From the sequence record PQ850620.1: 39,651 nt of DNA. One strand, written 5' to 3'. This document shows, one piece after another, positions 33,681 to 39,651 of the stretch. A program made the position numbers and the translations under genes. The notes below the pieces were generated by a model. It was not told where the DNA came from. It saw only the letters and a program-made list of their open reading frames with translations, and made no database searches. Each line of letters begins with the position of its first letter. Position 1 is the stretch's first letter. This DNA is from Escherichia phage MeretOppenheim_Bas102.

Positions 33681-36600
33681 ATGGATAAGTACGATAAGAA
33701 CGTACCAAGTGATTATGATGGTCTGTTCCAGAAGGCGGCTGATGCCAACGGGGTCTCGTATGACCTTTTACGTAAAGTCGCTTGGACAGAATCACGATTT
33801 GTACCTACAGCAAAATCTAAGACTGGACCATTAGGCATGATGCAGTTTACCAAGGCAACCGCTAAGGCACTTGGTCTGCGAGTTACCGATGGTCCAGACG
33901 ATGACAGACTGAATCCAGAGTTGGCTATTGATGCTGCTGCCAAGCACCTTGCTGGACTGGTGAGTAAATTCGATGGGGATGAACTCAAGGCTGCCCTTGC
34001 GTACAATCAAGGTGAGGGGCGCTTAGGGAATCCACAACTTGAGGCATACACAAAAGGTGACTTCTCTGCTATCTCCGAGGAGGGTCGTAACTACATGCGT
34101 AACCTCATGGATGTAGCTCGGTCGCCCATGATTGGTCAGTTGGAAGCGTTCGGTGGAATCACCCCAAAGGGTAAAGGCATCCCTTCTGATGTTGGTTTAG
34201 GAGACATTAAGGTCGAAGGGAAGCGTAAAGTAACAGATGCTATCCCAGAGTCAACTGGATTGGACATTAAAGGTATCGAACAGGAGGCTCCGGCGAAATC
34301 ATTCGCTACGGACTTTTGGGACCATCATAAACAGAAACCATCTGAGTATGACGACCGCTCAACATTCTTCGGATTCAAAGATGCTGCAAGTGCCGAAATT
34401 GACAACTCAGTCCTCGGCATGGCCTTCCGTGCTGGTCGCCTCGATAATAGTTTTGATGTGTTTAAGGATGTTATCACGCCTACGCGTTGGAACTCTACTA
34501 TCTGGACTCATGAGGAACTAGAGAGGATTAGAACAGAAGTTAAGAACCCAGCGTATCTCAATGTTGTTACAGGCGGTTCACCTGAGAACCTTGATGACCT
34601 AATTAGATTAGCCAACGAGAACTACGAGAATGACCTAAAGAAAGCTGACGCAGGTATCGGAGCACAACTTTCCGCTGGCGTTGTTGGTTCAGCATTCGAC
34701 CCACTATCGTATGTGCCGTTGGTTGGTGTAACTGGTAAGGGCTTTAAGTTAATCAATAAGGCTCTTGTGGTAGGTGCTGAGAGTGCAGCTATTAACATGG
34801 CCTCAGAAGGGTTGCGAACGTCTATAGTTGGTGGAGACGCTAATTATACTGGTGCGGTACTAGGTGGTCTTGTGTTTGGGGCAGGAATGTCTGCAATCAG
34901 TGACACTATAGCTGCTGGATTGAGACGTAGCAAACCTGAGGCTGAGTTTAACAACGAGTTCGTCGGACCGTTGATGCGTATGGAAGCCCGTGAGACTGCC
35001 TTTAACGCTAACTCTGTGGACATGTCTAAGATGAACACAGATAGCACCAAATTTGACCGAGAGTACAGCGGGGTTAACTATGCGCCATTGGACACAGAGC
35101 CGGGTGCAGTTGTCCTACCTCAAGGTCAAATCCTCAGTGACACTAACCCACTGAACCCACAGACACTAAGTGAGTTTGAGGCGATAAATCCTGAGCGTGC
35201 AGCCAGAGGTATCTCCTTAGGTGGGTTCACTGAGATTGGCCTTAAGACACTACGTTCTGAGAACACTGGAGTTCGCTCCATTGCGCGTGACCTAGTGCGC
35301 TCTCCAACTGGCATGGAATCAGGGTCTAATGGTAAGTTCGGCTCGACCGCTGATGATATTCATAGTAGGTTATCATCCAACGATAACCGAGATTGGAACC
35401 TATACTATGATAAGATGAAGGAAGTCATGAAAGACCCTGAGTTCACAGTAGGTGCGCCTAAGATGAGCAAAGCAGAGGCCGTTGAGTTCATTGACCGCAA
35501 AATTGGACTAGCAATAGAGCACCCTGAGTTACAGGTAAACTTGTCTCCTAAAGAGCTAGACCTGATGCGCCACGTTAAGGGCCACTATGACCTCAAGCGT
35601 GAACTCATGGAAAACCCTGCTGTGTTTGGTAATCCAAAGGCGGTTAATATCTTCCCCGACAGTCGCAACAAAGGTACATACATTCCGCGAGTGTATGACA
35701 CCCAATTGAAGAATTTTCATATTCAACGTTTGGGGAGTCGAGAGGCTTTCCAGAGGGCTATCGCTGAAAGCTCCCTTGCGTCATACTATCTGCGTCCAGC
35801 AGTTAAGGCACGTATCGACGAGCACCTGATGGAAGTCAATGGGCTTAAGTCAACTAAAGACGTAACACACGAAATGGTGCGAAAGCACGCTATGGACAAA
35901 GCATATGGTATCTCCCATACAGACCAGTTCTCGGCGTCTTCTATTGTTGATGAGAATATCACGGGGCTTGTTGGTATCGAGAACAATAACTTTCTGGAAG
36001 CACGTAACCTCTTTGACACCGATGTACCAATCACGTTACCGGATGGCTCTACGTTCTCCGTAGATGACATTCGAGTGTTCAGCCAGCGCATCCTTATGCC
36101 AGCGTATGACCGTCGTGTGAATGGTGATATTGCCATCATGGGTAGCTCTGGTAAAACTACCAAGGAACTCAAGGATGAAATTATGGCACTGAGTAAGCAG
36201 GCCGAAGGTAACGGGAAGTTGAAGGGCGAAGTAGAAGCTCTTAAGGATACCGTGAAGATTCTAACTGGTCGCGCCCGTCGCAGCCCAGAAGGTGCTTTAG
36301 GGACAGCTTTACGCTCTCTGAATGACCTGACGTTCTTCGCCAAGAACTTCTATATGCCTCTCCAGAACTTCACGGAGATTGGTGCTATGTTGATAAAAGG
36401 TAATGTCTCTGCGGTGACTCATGGAATACCTATGATTAACGACTGGGTTAACCGGAGGAAACCAATGCGAGCCTCTGAGATTAAAGAACTCCACAGTATG
36501 GTGTTCGGGAAGGAACTCGACCAGTTAATACGCCCTAGTCGTGAAGATCACATTCGCAGACTTAGGGAGTCTACAGACACCAACGCTGTGTTGGCTAATG

Positions 36601-37655
36601 TGGTTGGTACTCTTCGTTTCGGCACTCAGGAGTTAGCGGCTCGTTCCCCATGGACGGTAATGCTTAATGGAACAACAAACTACATTATCGACGCAGCCCG
36701 TCAGGGTGTGCTAGGGGATATTGCCAGCGCAGCACTATCAGGGACTGGTGCCAAGTTTGGTAAGGCAAATTATCTTAAGTCTGCCTCAATCAGTCCTGAG
36801 CATTGGAATGGTATCAAGCAATTATTTCGGGACCACACCACTCGTGATGCTAACGGTAAGTTCACAATCAAGGACAAAAGGGCGTTCACCTACGACCCAC
36901 GCACAATGGATTTGTGGAGACTTGCTGACAAAGTGGCTGGAGAGACAATCATGCGACCCCATAAGATTTCCTCTCAAGATTCGGTTGCGTATGGTGCTGG
37001 TGTAAAGATGGTAATGCAATTTAAGAACTTCGTTATTAAGTCGCTTAACGCCCGATTTGTCCGTAGCTTTTATGAGGCCACAAAGAACAACCGTGCGTTA
37101 GACCAAGCGTTAACTCACATTGTTTCCTGTGGGCTTGCTGGTGGCTACTTCGTTGGACAGGCGCACCTAAAGGCCGCTGCCTTACCTGAGGACAAACGTA
37201 AGGAGTACCTCAAGATGGCACTAGACCCGAAGATGATTGCTCATGCGTCTATCTCCCGTAGCTCACACTTAGGTTCGCCACTTAGCATCTACGATATGAT
37301 CGCTGGGGTGTTTGGTGATGATACCTATAAATACACACGCTCCACGATACTACCTAAGCAACCAGAGGAACGAGATCGCACAAAAGCGGTCACAGGTCGT
37401 CAGGTTACTGGTATGATTAGCGGTGCTTTAGGCGAGCAGATTCCCGCTTTGGGGTTCGCAGGGCAGGTTGGCGGTACGGCACTTAATGCTATATCGCTAC
37501 TGAAAGCGCCTAACAAGGCTACCGAGATGGAGTTCCGTACAGGGATGTTTAATACCATGCGTGAGATTGTTCCGAACGACCCTATCACGCAGCAACTCAT
37601 TATGAAAATTTATGAGGCAAATGGTATCCACATCAAGGAGACACCTAGGAAATAA
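33681..37655 (+). CDS. 16: internal virion (core) protein D with N-terminal lytic transglycosylase domain (gp16)
   Basis: 1324-aa ORF MDKYDKNVPSDYDGLFQKAADANGVSYDLLRKVAWTESRF... (SLT-like motif ESRF); stop TAA doubles as start of phi17. Confidence 0.95.
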   Translation: MDKYDKNVPSDYDGLFQKAADANGVSYDLLRKVAWTESRFVPTAKSKTGPLGMMQFTKATAKALGLRVTDGPDDDRLNPELAIDAAAKHLAGLVSKFDGDELKAALAYNQGEGRLGNPQLEAYTKGDFSAISEEGRNYMRNLMDVARSPMIGQLEAFGGITPKGKGIPSDVGLGDIKVEGKRKVTDAIPESTGLDIKGIEQEAPAKSFATDFWDHHKQKPSEYDDRSTFFGFKDAASAEIDNSVLGMAFRAGRLDNSFDVFKDVITPTRWNSTIWTHEELERIRTEVKNPAYLNVVTGGSPENLDDLIRLANENYENDLKKADAGIGAQLSAGVVGSAFDPLSYVPLVGVTGKGFKLINKALVVGAESAAINMASEGLRTSIVGGDANYTGAVLGGLVFGAGMSAISDTIAAGLRRSKPEAEFNNEFVGPLMRMEARETAFNANSVDMSKMNTDSTKFDREYSGVNYAPLDTEPGAVVLPQGQILSDTNPLNPQTLSEFEAINPERAARGISLGGFTEIGLKTLRSENTGVRSIARDLVRSPTGMESGSNGKFGSTADDIHSRLSSNDNRDWNLYYDKMKEVMKDPEFTVGAPKMSKAEAVEFIDRKIGLAIEHPELQVNLSPKELDLMRHVKGHYDLKRELMENPAVFGNPKAVNIFPDSRNKGTYIPRVYDTQLKNFHIQRLGSREAFQRAIAESSLASYYLRPAVKARIDEHLMEVNGLKSTKDVTHEMVRKHAMDKAYGISHTDQFSASSIVDENITGLVGIENNNFLEARNLFDTDVPITLPDGSTFSVDDIRVFSQRILMPAYDRRVNGDIAIMGSSGKTTKELKDEIMALSKQAEGNGKLKGEVEALKDTVKILTGRARRSPEGALGTALRSLNDLTFFAKNFYMPLQNFTEIGAMLIKGNVSAVTHGIPMINDWVNRRKPMRASEIKELHSMVFGKELDQLIRPSREDHIRRLRESTDTNAVLANVVGTLRFGTQELAARSPWTVMLNGTTNYIIDAARQGVLGDIASAALSGTGAKFGKANYLKSASISPEHWNGIKQLFRDHTTRDANGKFTIKDKRAFTYDPRTMDLWRLADKVAGETIMRPHKISSQDSVAYGAGVKMVMQFKNFVIKSLNARFVRSFYEATKNNRALDQALTHIVSCGLAGGYFVGQAHLKAAALPEDKRKEYLKMALDPKMIAHASISRSSHLGSPLSIYDMIAGVFGDDTYKYTRSTILPKQPEERDRTKAVTGRQVTGMISGALGEQIPALGFAGQVGGTALNAISLLKAPNKATEMEFRTGMFNTMREIVPNDPITQQLIMKIYEANGIHIKETPRK

Positions 37656-37675
37656 TACGACTCACTATGGGGAGA
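37653..37675 (+). promoter_or_regulatory. T7 RNAP promoter phi17 (variant at -1)
   Basis: TAATACGACTCACTATGGGGAGA: consensus except G instead of A at -1; first TAA is the gene 16 stop. Confidence 0.8.
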
Positions 37676-37727
37676 GGTGAAAGAATCTTCTCCCTGTAGT
37701 CTCTTAGATTTACTTTAAGGAGGTCAA

Positions 37728-39596
37728 ATGGCTAACGTAATTAAAACCGTTTTGACTTACCAGTTAGATGGCTCCAATCGTGATTTTAATATTCCGTTTG
37801 AGTATCTAGCCCGTAAGTTCGTAGTGGTAACCATTATTGGTGTAGACCGCAAGGTCCTTACGATTAATACAGACTATCGTTTTGCTACTCGTACTACCAT
37901 CTCACTGACCAAGGCTTGGGGTCCAGCGGATGGATACACGACCATCGAGTTGCGCCGAGTAACCTCCACGACAGACCGCTTGGTTGACTTTACGGACGGC
38001 TCAATCCTCCGTGCGTATGACCTAAACGTTGCTCAGATTCAAACGATGCACGTAGCGGAAGAGGCCCGTGACCTTACTGCTGATACCATAGGTGTCAATA
38101 ATGATGGTCACTTGGATGCTCGTGGTCGCCGTATTGTGAACCTAGCGAACGCTGTGGATGACCGTGACGCTGTTCCGTTCGGGCAACTTAAGACCATGAA
38201 CCAGAACTCGTGGCAGGCGCGTAATGAGGCTCAAGGTTTCCGTAATGAGGCTGAGACTTTCAGAAATCAAGCGGAGGGCTTTAAGACTGAGTCTGGCACT
38301 AACGCTGCTAATACGAAGCAGTGGCGTGATGAGACCAAAGGTTTCCGAGATGAAGCTGAGCAGTTCAAGAATACTGCTGGTCAATATGCTACATCTGCTG
38401 GCAACTCTGCTACCGCCGCACATCAATCTGAGGTAAACGCTGGGAACTCCGCTACAGCCTCCGCTAATTCCGCTAATTTGGCAGAACAGCAAGCAGACCG
38501 AGCGGAACGCGAAGCAGACAAGTTGGGTAACTGGAATGCACTTGCAGGGGCCATTGATAGTGTCGATGGTAACAATGTCATGTTTAAAGGGGACATTCGA
38601 ACACCAAATAACATTGTAGGTGGTGGCTTAATCTCCAACGGTGCTGGTCATTTTGAGAAAGGAGTGCGTATTAGAGAGGGATTAGATGTTATAGGGGACA
38701 TTGCGGCACATAAGGATGTGTGGGTAGATGGTGTGGTTGTTGCCAATGGCGGTATACAGCAACAATCAGGGCCTAATTCAAGTAACGATATGTGGCGACT
38801 GTATATTAAAGGGGGACCACGGTATATCGGATACAGCCAAGGTCTTCATCTTGGTTGGAACGAGAGCGGTGGGTGGGGTGAATCATGCTTTGTTACTAAC
38901 AAAGGCGCAGGTAGCGGAGGTTTTGTTTTCCGCACGGTAAACTTTGAGAACAGTGTTGAGATTGGTCGCGTTACATTCAATGGTAACGGTGGGGTACGCG
39001 CCTACGATTTCCAAACAGTTAATGGTGCTCGTATTGAGGCTGGGAATAATATAGTTTGCGCGAGCATCTTCGCAGGAATGGGCGGCTGCGCGTTAGATAC
39101 TGTAGGTAACTTAGTAAACGGTGTATGGAACAACGTTGGTGGTGATTTGTATAACTACCTACAGAACAAGTCCCACTTCGCTAAGCCACCTGCTGGGGTT
39201 AAATTGTTTACATCACGCGGTGGTGACTACCTTGAGGGTGTGGTGGATGCTACCGCTGTTGGGTTCCGCTGGTTCAATTCTGACAGAAGGCTTAAAGAAA
39301 ACATAAAGGTTGTACGTTCCGCTGATGATATGCTTAAGATTATCCGCTCATACATCCCGGTTTCCTATAAGTATAAGGACTCTGAGCATGTTGATAAGCG
39401 CGGCAGAACGGTAAGTGTTACTGGTAAGAACTCTCGTGCCGGTTTCATTACTCAGGATTTGATTCGAATCTGGCCAGAGGCGGTTGACGTACTATCCGAT
39501 GGTATGCAATCTCCAGACCCTAACCAAATCATTGGCGGACTAATGCTTCTTGTCAAGAACCTTGACGAACGCGTACAGGAGTTGGAGAAAAAATAA
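37728..39596 (+). CDS. 17: tail fibre protein (gp17), mosaic: T7-like N-terminal tail-attachment/coiled-coil region, divergent receptor-binding region, C-terminal S74-type intramolecular chaperone domain
   Basis: 622-aa ORF; residues 1 to ~285 recognisable as T7 gp17 (MANVIKTVLTYQLDGSNRDFNIPFEYLARKF...); downstream sequence differs from T7 as I recall it; C-terminal ~105 aa begin with SDRRLKENI, the conserved cleavage-site signature of self-cleaving chaperone domains. Confidence 0.9.
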   Translation: MANVIKTVLTYQLDGSNRDFNIPFEYLARKFVVVTIIGVDRKVLTINTDYRFATRTTISLTKAWGPADGYTTIELRRVTSTTDRLVDFTDGSILRAYDLNVAQIQTMHVAEEARDLTADTIGVNNDGHLDARGRRIVNLANAVDDRDAVPFGQLKTMNQNSWQARNEAQGFRNEAETFRNQAEGFKTESGTNAANTKQWRDETKGFRDEAEQFKNTAGQYATSAGNSATAAHQSEVNAGNSATASANSANLAEQQADRAEREADKLGNWNALAGAIDSVDGNNVMFKGDIRTPNNIVGGGLISNGAGHFEKGVRIREGLDVIGDIAAHKDVWVDGVVVANGGIQQQSGPNSSNDMWRLYIKGGPRYIGYSQGLHLGWNESGGWGESCFVTNKGAGSGGFVFRTVNFENSVEIGRVTFNGNGGVRAYDFQTVNGARIEAGNNIVCASIFAGMGGCALDTVGNLVNGVWNNVGGDLYNYLQNKSHFAKPPAGVKLFTSRGGDYLEGVVDATAVGFRWFNSDRRLKENIKVVRSADDMLKIIRSYIPVSYKYKDSEHVDKRGRTVSVTGKNSRAGFITQDLIRIWPEAVDVLSDGMQSPDPNQIIGGLMLLVKNLDERVQELEKK

Positions 39597-39651
39597 CGTT
39601 TAAGGATAACACCAGATTAGGACCAAGGATGGTCTTTAATAAGGAGGATAC

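Follow-up and report, generated by a model that had tools for sequence, protein, structure and literature searches.

A T7-type tail fibre precursor with a probable recombined distal half and a predicted self-cleaving Peptidase S74 chaperone

Results and Discussion

Mosaic structure of gene 17

The tail fibre gene of this T7-like genome begins like gene 17 of T7 and ends quite differently, which raises the questions where the two parts join, where the second one belongs, and how such a protein might mature. The window, i.e. the whole stretch of 39,651 nt that was analysed, starts at position 1 with the ATG of the holin gene 17.5. We consider it very probable that gene 17 encodes a modular precursor, in which a T7-type attachment domain and rod are followed by a recombined distal half of the φYeO3-12 type and a self-cleaving S74 chaperone (Table 1).

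Table 1. Features of gene 17 and its flanks in window coordinates (aa, residues of gp17).
Feature	Position	Strand	Evidence and remarks
T7-type class III promoter (phi17 equivalent), upstream of gene 17	37653..37675	+	one mismatch, at position -1 (TATGGGGAGA)
Gene 17, tail fibre precursor, 622 aa, 67.8 kDa	37728..39596 (incl. stop codon)	+	single ORF; PHROG 9502 'tail fiber protein', residues 1-622, E 9e-281
N-terminal tail-attachment domain, T7 type, aa 1-162	37728..38213	+	PF03906 Phage_T7_tail, residues 1-162, E 3.7e-74
Proximal rod, FRNEAE-type coiled-coil repeats, T7/T3 type, aa 163-261	38214..38510	+	aa identity 93% to T7, 89% to T3, 27% to φYeO3-12
Conserved linker with left recombination junction, aa 262-289 (...KLGNWNALAGAIDSVDGNNVMFKG)	38511..38594	+	megablast homology to T7/T3 stops at nt 38578
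Distal half-fibre, presumed receptor-binding region, φYeO3-12 type, aa 290-517	38595..39278	+	Gly-rich, most variable part of gp17; tblastn matches
Conserved core motif in the distal region, aa 365-435 (QGLHLGWNESGG..GAGSGGFVFRTVN..N..EIGR)	38820..39032	+	common to >100 otherwise unrelated fibre-like proteins
Predicted scissile bond Asn517/Ser518 (codons AAC/AGC region)	39276..39281	+	Ser518 is the first PF13884 position; precedents T5 pb1 and φYeO3-12
Peptidase S74 intramolecular chaperone domain, aa 518-622, 12.0 kDa, pI 9.3	39279..39593	+	Ser518/Lys523 dyad; predicted C-terminal helix aa ~598-621
Right recombination junction, just 5' of the gene 17.5 (holin) ribosome-binding site	39597..39623	+	T7/T3 homology back at 39617-39623

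The preliminary description had recognised T7 likeness in the first ~285 residues and its loss from about residue 290 (nt 38595), and both observations hold. Megablast against T7, T3 and about 200 other records covered only gene nt 1-851 with 89-91% identity. In a sliding window, nucleotide identity to T7/T3 was still 83% at gene nt 721-810, but only 41% at nt 856-945 and no better than chance beyond, which places the collapse at window ~38540-38590. Amino acid identity to T7 was 99% for residues 1-150 (99% to T3 also), 93% for 151-261, 71% for 262-289, 19% for 290-517 and 11% for 518-622. The N-terminal domain and rod, with QARNEAQGFRNEAETFRNQAEGFK at residues 163-186, are thus 89-99% identical to T7/T3 gp17, with which the phi17-type promoter and the gene position are shared as well. 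T7/T3 gp17 continues into pyramid and tip domains (PDB 4A0T) and has neither an S74 domain nor cleavage, whereas no similarity to that distal half-fibre was detectable here after residue ~290. On the 3' side of gene 17, homology resumes about 20 nt past the stop codon (T3 from 39617, T7 from 39623) and continues at 86-87% identity, as seen by blastn across the circular join.

The left break falls within a linker of the form KLGNxNxxAxAIxxVxGxxVxxKG (residues ~262-289), which is conserved in the fibres of T7, T3 and φYeO3-12. We take its equivalent in T7 gp17 to be the meeting point of the proximal coiled-coil rod and the distal half-fibre; since the break sits in this linker, the entire distal half has been swapped. 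Given where similarity is lost and regained, the replacement of the whole distal half-fibre involved a cassette of ~1.04 kb. Both junctions are clean and therefore support recombination, as had been proposed initially; the location at a shaft/tip boundary was not borne out, as the junction lies in the linker at aa ~262-289 and not inside the distal fibre.

Relatives of the cassette

tblastn searches with the cassette matched 54 phage records, among which the record of MeretOppenheim (Bas102) was absent. Thirty-six of them, including φYeO3-12, AP5, phiYe-F10, E-2/3/4, KNP3 and phiCFP-1, passed a coverage of at least 80% and covered 99-100% of the query with 58-84% identity (φYeO3-12 gp17 62%; vB_Yep_9, 64795_ec1, ESh1 and NC-A 81-84%). 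The combination of distal module and S74 chaperone is the same in φYeO3-12 (Teetrevirus), AP5, phiYe-F10, E-2/3/4, KNP3, phiCFP-1 and 2050H2. Furthermore, residues 290-622 match PHROG 9502 positions 308-644 (E 1.1e-143), so that distal region and chaperone are homologous from end to end. The gp17 of φYeO3-12 (~645 aa in total) shares the T7-type N-terminal attachment domain (79% amino acid identity) but has a different, longer rod with 27% identity to the one described here.

Identical architecture and junctions were found in the Teseptimavirus phages 64795_ec1, ESh1, NC-A and vB_Yep_9, with 83-89% nucleotide identity over the whole gene and 72-86% identity in the distal receptor-binding part; in the 64795_ec1 record a 1-nt insertion splits gene 17 in two. 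Their hosts differ, being E. coli, Shigella, E. coli NC101 and Y. enterocolitica. Besides these four sequenced phages, the T7-rod-plus-cassette fibre occurs in 38 of 92 protein clusters (90% identity) that carry the cassette, many of them on contigs of 39-40 kb. The exact gp17 protein had no identical entry in the assembly index. A T7 rod with a φYeO3-12-type cassette is thus a common and already published fibre design, of which the present gene is a further variant.

These data bear on two other ways of explaining the mosaic, to both of which we assign next to no probability. The C-terminal half could be a strongly diverged T7/T3 distal fibre with pyramid and tip rather than a foreign module, given that T7 has the linker at aa 262-289 in common with gp17 (71% identity) and that a MAFFT alignment can produce a few scattered, forced identities beyond it; however, the sequence data given above already refute it. 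Alternatively, two phages occurring together could have been joined into a chimera during assembly, as the window is a permuted assembly beginning at the holin ATG and hence a computationally processed sequence. Yet the reading frame is unbroken through both junctions, and these are the same in four independently isolated phages and in 38 clusters from public assemblies, so that the mosaic is not an assembly artefact.

The S74 chaperone domain

The last ~105 residues, from Ser518 (nt 39279) onwards, had been likened to Peptidase S74 in the preliminary description, and the profile and the fold agree with this. Pfam model PF13884 matched residues 518-586 along profile positions 1-57 of 58 (E 4.5e-12; bit score 46.5, with a gathering threshold of 22), and all 19 homologues matched it too. 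Residues 517-526 read NSDRRLKENI and contain the S-D-x-x-x-K signature as Ser518-Asp519-Arg-Arg-Leu-Lys523, the S, D and K of which do not vary in any of three alignments (19, 21 and 120 sequences). Ser518 and Lys523 are the equivalents of Ser1264 and Lys1269 in T5 pb1 (PMC4690869). The domain forms the extreme C-terminus (residues 518-622 of 622) of a protein with a T7 tail-fibre N-terminal domain.

A profile of the 19 sequences matched solved chaperone domains significantly among PDB sequences; its match to T7 gp17 structures was discarded, being due only to N-terminal overhangs of the full-length homologues in the alignment. Single-sequence phmmer searches of aa 285-622 and aa 500-622 against the PDB gave non-significant matches only (E 0.4-0.95), the NCBIfam scan returned nothing relevant, and we found no literature on PDB entry 8JOV. 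A first word-indexed protein search had yielded 5 proteins only, and a 6-sequence alignment gave an AF2 model with pLDDT 36; a usable model was obtained from the 120-sequence alignment of a profile-based protein search. It reproduces the fold of solved S74 chaperones, mixed α/β with a long C-terminal helix, which in those domains builds the trimeric coiled coil. Only one chain of the obligate trimer was modelled, parts of the distal region have a pLDDT of 55-65, and the model says little on the receptor-binding fold; its distal part matched no solved structure. Sequence, profile and modelled fold together assign residues 518-622 to the Peptidase S74 chaperone domains. Other carriers of such chaperones with known structures are the K1F endosialidase, the L-shaped fibre pb1 of T5, the GA-1 neck appendage and S16 gp37. 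Their chaperones are just 9-23% identical to that of gp17, and their clients, a sialidase β-propeller with stalk or the bullet-shaped pb1 domain, are unrelated to it.

Predicted maturation

Gene 17 can be annotated as a precursor with a predicted cut site, the expected products being a mature fibre of 517 aa (55.8 kDa) and a released chaperone of 105 aa (12.0 kDa). In E. coli, Gp17 of φYeO3-12 undergoes cleavage (PMC7582827, PMC8739404) into pieces of ~58 and ~11 kDa by SDS-PAGE (PMC7582827) and of 57.423 and 12.242 kDa by mass spectrometry (PMC8739404). We computed 12,258.8 Da for its fragment from Ser539 to the end; the published value lies 17 Da below this Ser-start fragment, which supports the cut site but does not fix it exactly. 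T5 pb1 is cut at Thr1263/Ser1264 with Lys1269 activating, and only once the trimer is correctly folded, with Arg1250 and Asp1239 of a neighbouring chain, upstream of the cut, serving as folding sensors (PMC4690869). Arg514, Arg497, Asp507 and Asp500 are candidates for this role in gp17. On virion fibres, no cryo-EM density was seen for the S74 domain (PMC12143355).

We propose that aa 1-162 would dock the trimer to the tail, with the coiled-coil rod to about aa 261 forming the proximal half-fibre. Homologous recombination would have put the cassette (window ~38579-39620), of a kind first seen in the Yersinia phage φYeO3-12, in place of the distal half after the linker. It would encode a distal fibre rich in Gly and with β-structure (aa 290-517), which bears the receptor-binding surface, plus the chaperone. 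By homology to K1F endosialidase and T5 pb1, three chaperone domains may trimerise via their C-terminal helices and act as a template on which the intertwined β-structure before them folds. After correct folding, Ser518, activated by Lys523, would cut the Asn517-Ser518 bond in each chain, freeing the 12.0-kDa fragment while the mature fibre stays on the virion. A separate fibre-assembly gene would be unneeded, and the holin gene follows directly.

It is conceivable that the S74 domain does not cleave and stays as a structural cap or merely serves as a trimerisation domain. We regard this as improbable, since both residues of the Ser/Lys dyad and also Asp519 are retained and do not vary in 120 sequences, and since the domain shares 84% identity with its counterpart in the cleaved φYeO3-12 Gp17 (PMC7582827, PMC8739404) and 92-98% with those of the four closest relatives. 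Of similarly low, if anything slightly lower, probability is an enzymatic distal region, i.e. a depolymerase or tailspike-like glycanase comparable to the K1F endosialidase instead of a purely binding fibre. The first S74 chaperones to be described were those of endosialidase tailspikes, and recombinant φYeO3-12 Gp17 inhibits growth and biofilm (PMC7582827). However, only ~230 residues make up the mature distal part, which is Gly-rich and matched no family of glycosidases, lyases or β-helix depolymerases in Pfam or the PDB, and in ELISA the behaviour of φYeO3-12 Gp17 was that of a stable O-antigen adhesin (PMC8739404).

Distal region and putative receptor

No Pfam family matched the distal region (18.5% Gly over aa 285-517), and sequence searches of the PDB gave no solved homologue. 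The region is hypervariable, with an alignment entropy of 1.1-1.8 bits over residues 285-484, whereas the chaperone is conserved, as are the ~33 residues that precede the cut. T7 and T3 gp17 bind the rough LPS core (PMC11990801), and φYeO3-12 Gp17 binds the YeO:3 O-antigen but not a rough mutant (PMC8739404). The T7-like Teseptimavirus MeretOppenheim (Bas102) has been described with a fibre that carries a C-terminal intramolecular chaperone and with a dependence on O-antigen (O16) (PMC11990801). An LPS polysaccharide (O-antigen), the type of receptor of φYeO3-12 and AP5, is the most likely receptor of gp17, rather than the rough LPS core to which T7 binds; that the receptor differs from that of T7 is a reasonable inference for this allele. 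The specificity itself is not transferable, because the distal region is only 54-56% identical to φYeO3-12 and at most 82% to any known allele. As its receptor-binding surface has diverged from that of φYeO3-12, specificity for the YeO:3 O-antigen should not be assumed.

The arrangement indicates that two conserved homology arms flank exchangeable receptor-binding cassettes among T7-, T3- and φYeO3-12-like phages, namely the linker at aa 262-289 on the left and the near-invariant chaperone with the intergenic region on the right. For host-range engineering of T7-type phages this would mean that a swap must include the chaperone and that the fibre should not be tagged or truncated at its C-terminus. 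It also helps to predict a smooth-LPS host requirement for this phage. The practical value is modest, and no new biological question is opened.

A ~70-residue core within the distal region (aa 365-435, QG.h.GWNESGG.GE..F.NN.G.G.GGFVFRTVN..N..E.GR) was covered by 121 significant matches from 155 retrieved proteins, with G, W, N, G, G, F and R invariant in the alignment. In several of these proteins the S74 start follows directly after the motif. A 30-sequence profile of the core matched no solved structure in the PDB. We tentatively suggest, with rather more doubt than confidence, that the core is an undescribed, widely mobile fibre domain, often placed just before the S74 start and possibly a minimal S74 folding client or a generic glycan-binding unit, and that the distal allele may recognise a receptor so far unlinked to this fibre family.

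Other sequence features

Scanning 37000-39651 for Rfam families and terminators gave no match, sigma-70-like sites in the same interval were at chance level, and antisense ORFs of 43-116 aa within gene 17 were without support. The T7 promoter consensus was matched 10 times in the window, with 0 matches expected (consensus scan). GC-skew rises at 38450-39050; as a mark of foreign DNA this rise was discarded, since the glycine content of the distal region (18.5%, GGN codons) explains it more simply.

Mosaic structure of gene 17

By its position and N-terminus the product of gene 17 is gp17, and its distal half belongs to the distal-module family of the type found in Yersinia phage φYeO3-12. A megablast search with gene 17 against 50,697 phage records matched about 220 records. 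Full-length matches were obtained only to the Teseptimavirus phages 64795_ec1, ESh1, vB_Yep_9 and NC-A (83-89%), and T7, T3, T7M, φA1122 and the other partial matches listed covered gene nt 1-851 only, at 89-91% identity. In 90-nt sliding windows, identity to T7/T3 was 81-99% up to gene nt ~810, 73-77% at gene nt 766-855, 52-54% at gene nt 811-900 and at chance level (0-48%) from there to the gene end; the four full-length relatives showed 61-100% along the entire gene. Protein identity to T7 was 99% for residues 1-150, 93% for residues 151-261, 71% for residues 262-289, 19% for residues 290-517 and 11% for residues 518-622. These values agree with the preliminary description, which had a T7-like start and a loss of T7 resemblance at about residue 290; its positions for residue 290 and Ser518 were exact and its FRNEAE-type repeats were found at residues 163-186. 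The protein is not a receptor-binding fibre of the T7 type.

Homology to T3 and T7 returns ~20 nt past the stop codon and continues at 86-87% identity through the holin and terminase genes, across the circular join. Since T7/T3 similarity is lost at the left and regained so close to the stop codon, the exchanged segment is a clean cassette of ~1.04 kb. The left junction lies within the linker KLGNxNxxAxAIxxVxGxxVxxKG (aa 262-289), which is conserved in the T7, T3 and φYeO3-12 fibres and which in T7 gp17 separates the proximal coiled-coil rod from the distal half-fibre. The exchange covers the entire distal half of the fibre, beyond the tip alone. The module acquisition proposed earlier is thus upheld by a clean cassette with both junctions, but its placement at a shaft/tip boundary has to be moved to the linker between rod and distal half-fibre.

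The record of the closest relative, 64795_ec1 (L001, NC_031114), has a 1-nt insertion at 2348-2373, corresponding to window position 38598 (GACATTTAGAAC vs GACATTC-GAAC). The resulting stop lies right next to the mosaic junction and leaves gene 17 annotated as two CDS (290 and 341 aa). The insertion probably reflects a sequencing error; otherwise the fibre would be defective or made in two pieces.

Features of gene 17 and its surroundings
Feature	Window position	Strand	Remarks
Gene 17	37728..39596	+	single long ORF, 622 aa
T7-type promoter	37653-37675		1 mismatch; upstream of gene 17, followed by strong ribosome-binding site
Further T7 promoter matches	2837, 3803, 9233, 9303, 9789, 21589, 24913, 25952, 30325		nine matches
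3′ part of gene 16	36502-37655
Cassette	~38579-39620		~1.04 kb
Residue 290	38595
Core motif	38820-39032		aa ~365-435, QGLHLGWNESGG...GAGSGGFVFRTVN..N..EIGR
Ser518	39279
Return of homology	39617 (T3), 39623 (T7)		right junction
Permutation join	1-204 and 39597-39651		gene 17.5 start / its ribosome-binding site

C-terminal chaperone and predicted cleavage

The last 105 residues of gp17 are a bona fide Peptidase S74 intramolecular chaperone, as their resemblance to such domains had led the preliminary description to propose. PF13884 (Peptidase S74) matched residues 518-586 (E 4.5e-12, 46.5 bits vs threshold 22) as well as 19/19 diverse homologues from an exhaustive HMMER search. When a profile of these 19 homologues was searched against solved chains, chaperone-bearing chains were matched, namely fibre 8JOV (6.7e-31), Salmonella phage S16 gp37 6F45 (1.1e-18), the MyRF ICA domain 7DC3 (2.8e-15), the GA-1 neck appendage 3GUD (1.8e-10) and T5 pb1 8HQZ (6e-8). 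Residues 517-526 read NSDRRLKENI, and Ser518, Asp519 and Lys523, invariant across alignments of 19, 21 and 120 sequences, have the S-D-x-x-x-K layout of the T5 pb1 catalytic Ser/Lys pair (Ser1264/Lys1269; PMC4690869). An AlphaFold2 model of aa 285-622 (120-sequence alignment) had a mean pLDDT of 72.6, with 73-86 and a long terminal helix in the chaperone part; Foldseek comparison with the PDB was consistent with an S74 chaperone, and the best matches among BFVD viral models were S74-bearing fibres. S74 domains are widespread in many fibre classes and are missing from virion maps (PMC12143355).

In T5 pb1 the chaperone forms a trimer whose hairpins wrap around the folding client, and Thr1263-Ser1264 is cut only once the triple β-structure is correct, the serine departing with the chaperone (PMC4690869). 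Recombinant φYeO3-12 Gp17 (predicted 69.4 kDa) migrates as ~58 and ~11 kDa (PMC7582827), and mass spectrometry of the pieces gave 57.423 and 12.242 kDa (PMC8739404). The computed mass from Ser539 to the end is 12,258.8 Da, that of a fragment starting one residue later 12,171.8 Da and one residue earlier 12,387.0 Da, so that the published value places the cut directly before the serine, within 17 Da. The remaining gap, the published mass being the lower, could reflect measurement error or loss of NH3 or H2O at the new N-terminus. By homology, the window fibre would be cut between Asn517 and Ser518, which would yield a mature fibre of 517 aa and 55.8 kDa and a basic fragment of 12.0 kDa. No separate fibre-assembly gene is present, and the holin gene lies directly 3′ of gene 17.

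Among 94 members of the family, the chaperone and the last 33 residues ahead of the cut hardly vary (0.02-0.8 bits per position), and the distal fibre (285-484) is highly variable (mostly 1.1-1.8 bits). Diversifying selection on the mature surface would be expected to give such a pattern. Constraint would then act on the chaperone and its docking/cleavage site, which double as the right-hand homology arm for cassette exchange.

Distribution of the cassette

As a mobile module, the cassette is widespread among Studiervirinae. A tblastn search with aa 285-622 matched 54 phage records, and coverage reached 80% or more in 36. Matches included vB_Yep_9, 64795_ec1, ESh1 and NC-A (81-84%), the φYeO3-12 group (φYeO3-12 with 62%, AP5, phiYe-F10 and AP10), Enterobacter phages E-2, E-3, E-4 and KNP3, Citrobacter phage phiCFP-1, Serratia phage 2050H2, Klebsiella phage IME305 and several Shigella ESh phages. 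PHROG 9502 covers gp17 end to end (E 9e-281). Compared with φYeO3-12 gp17, identity is 54-56% in the distal part and 84% in the chaperone, but only 27% in the rod. A profile search over 5.8 billion proteins gave ~92 cassette-bearing clusters at 90% identity (T7-type rod in 38, φYeO3-12-type rod in 35, other rods in 19), many on 39-40 kb contigs. The exact gp17 protein was absent from the searched protein record and the highest identity of any cluster to its distal region was 82%; the window allele of the cassette is new, its T7-type rod background already known. Architecture, chaperone annotation, cleavage and O-antigen binding have all been published for close relatives, and T7-like phages with chaperone-bearing fibres were described from the BASEL collection (Bas102; PMC11990801). 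The window gp17 is hence an ordinary new allele of a known mosaic fibre.

For aa 290-517 no Pfam family and no solved structure, by sequence or fold, was found, and the AlphaFold2 model, a monomer of an obligate trimer, showed only short β-strands there. This region contains a core motif of ~60-70 aa (QG.h.GWNESGG.GE..F.NN.G.G.GGFVFRTVN..N..E.GR), covered by 121 of the significant matches (155 proteins retrieved in the exhaustive HMMER search) and common to >100 fibre-like protein clusters that are not otherwise related. Several short fibres have the S74 'SD.RLK' start immediately after the motif. It matched no Pfam family and, by sequence profile, no PDB entry, and seems to be a mobile sub-domain of fibres that lacks annotation.

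Possible receptor

φYeO3-12 Gp17 binds the Y. enterocolitica O:3 O-antigen and does not bind a rough mutant, and Gp17 of its relative AP5 behaves alike (PMC8739404). ESh1 combines the cassette fibre type with a T7 backbone, and ESh9 and ESh12 combine a φYeO3-12-type fibre with a T3-like one. Their Shigella serotype patterns are identical: the three phages lyse flexneri 2a, 3a and 5 and dysenteriae 1, and neither flexneri 6 nor sonnei (PMC9686686, Table 3). Such a common pattern across two phage genera with the cassette family fits a fibre-determined host range. 6-Deoxy-L-hexoses (rhamnose, 6-deoxyaltrose) are abundant in each of the susceptible O-antigens and in the φYeO3-12 receptor, and provide a candidate lead on the recognition target of the module. 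Classical-fibre T7-like phages require the rough LPS core, and O-antigen blocks them (PMC11990801). Taken together, our best guess for the receptor of the window fibre would be a smooth-LPS polysaccharide; with 82% identity or less in the distal part, no specificity can be assigned to this allele.

Genomic setting

The window is a complete T7-like genome (~39.65 kb), with ~92% nucleotide identity to Escherichia phage JeanTinguely and to T7 over its first 25 kb. It is circularly permuted: it opens with the start codon (ATG) of gene 17.5 (holin) and ends with the holin ribosome-binding site. The terminase and the genome ends are therefore internal to the window, and gene 17 keeps its usual place between gene 16 and the holin gene. 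The consensus of T7 RNA polymerase promoters was matched at ten sites vs 0 expected; the match before gene 17 has G in place of A at position -1.

Alignment from the 3′ part of gene 16 through the T7-like part of gene 17 gave ~75% nucleotide identity to T7/T3 and, since the gene 17 part alone has ~90%, it is the end of gene 16 that has diverged more. Over this stretch, identity to 64795_ec1, Yep_9, ESh1 and NC-A is 80-86%, which suggests that the window and these phages may have more in common than the fibre cassette. GC skew reaches 0.27-0.36 at window 38450-39050, compared with ~0.08 in the rest of gene 17 and 0-0.12 in the flank upstream, a rise explained by the 18.5% glycine (GGN codons) of the distal fibre.
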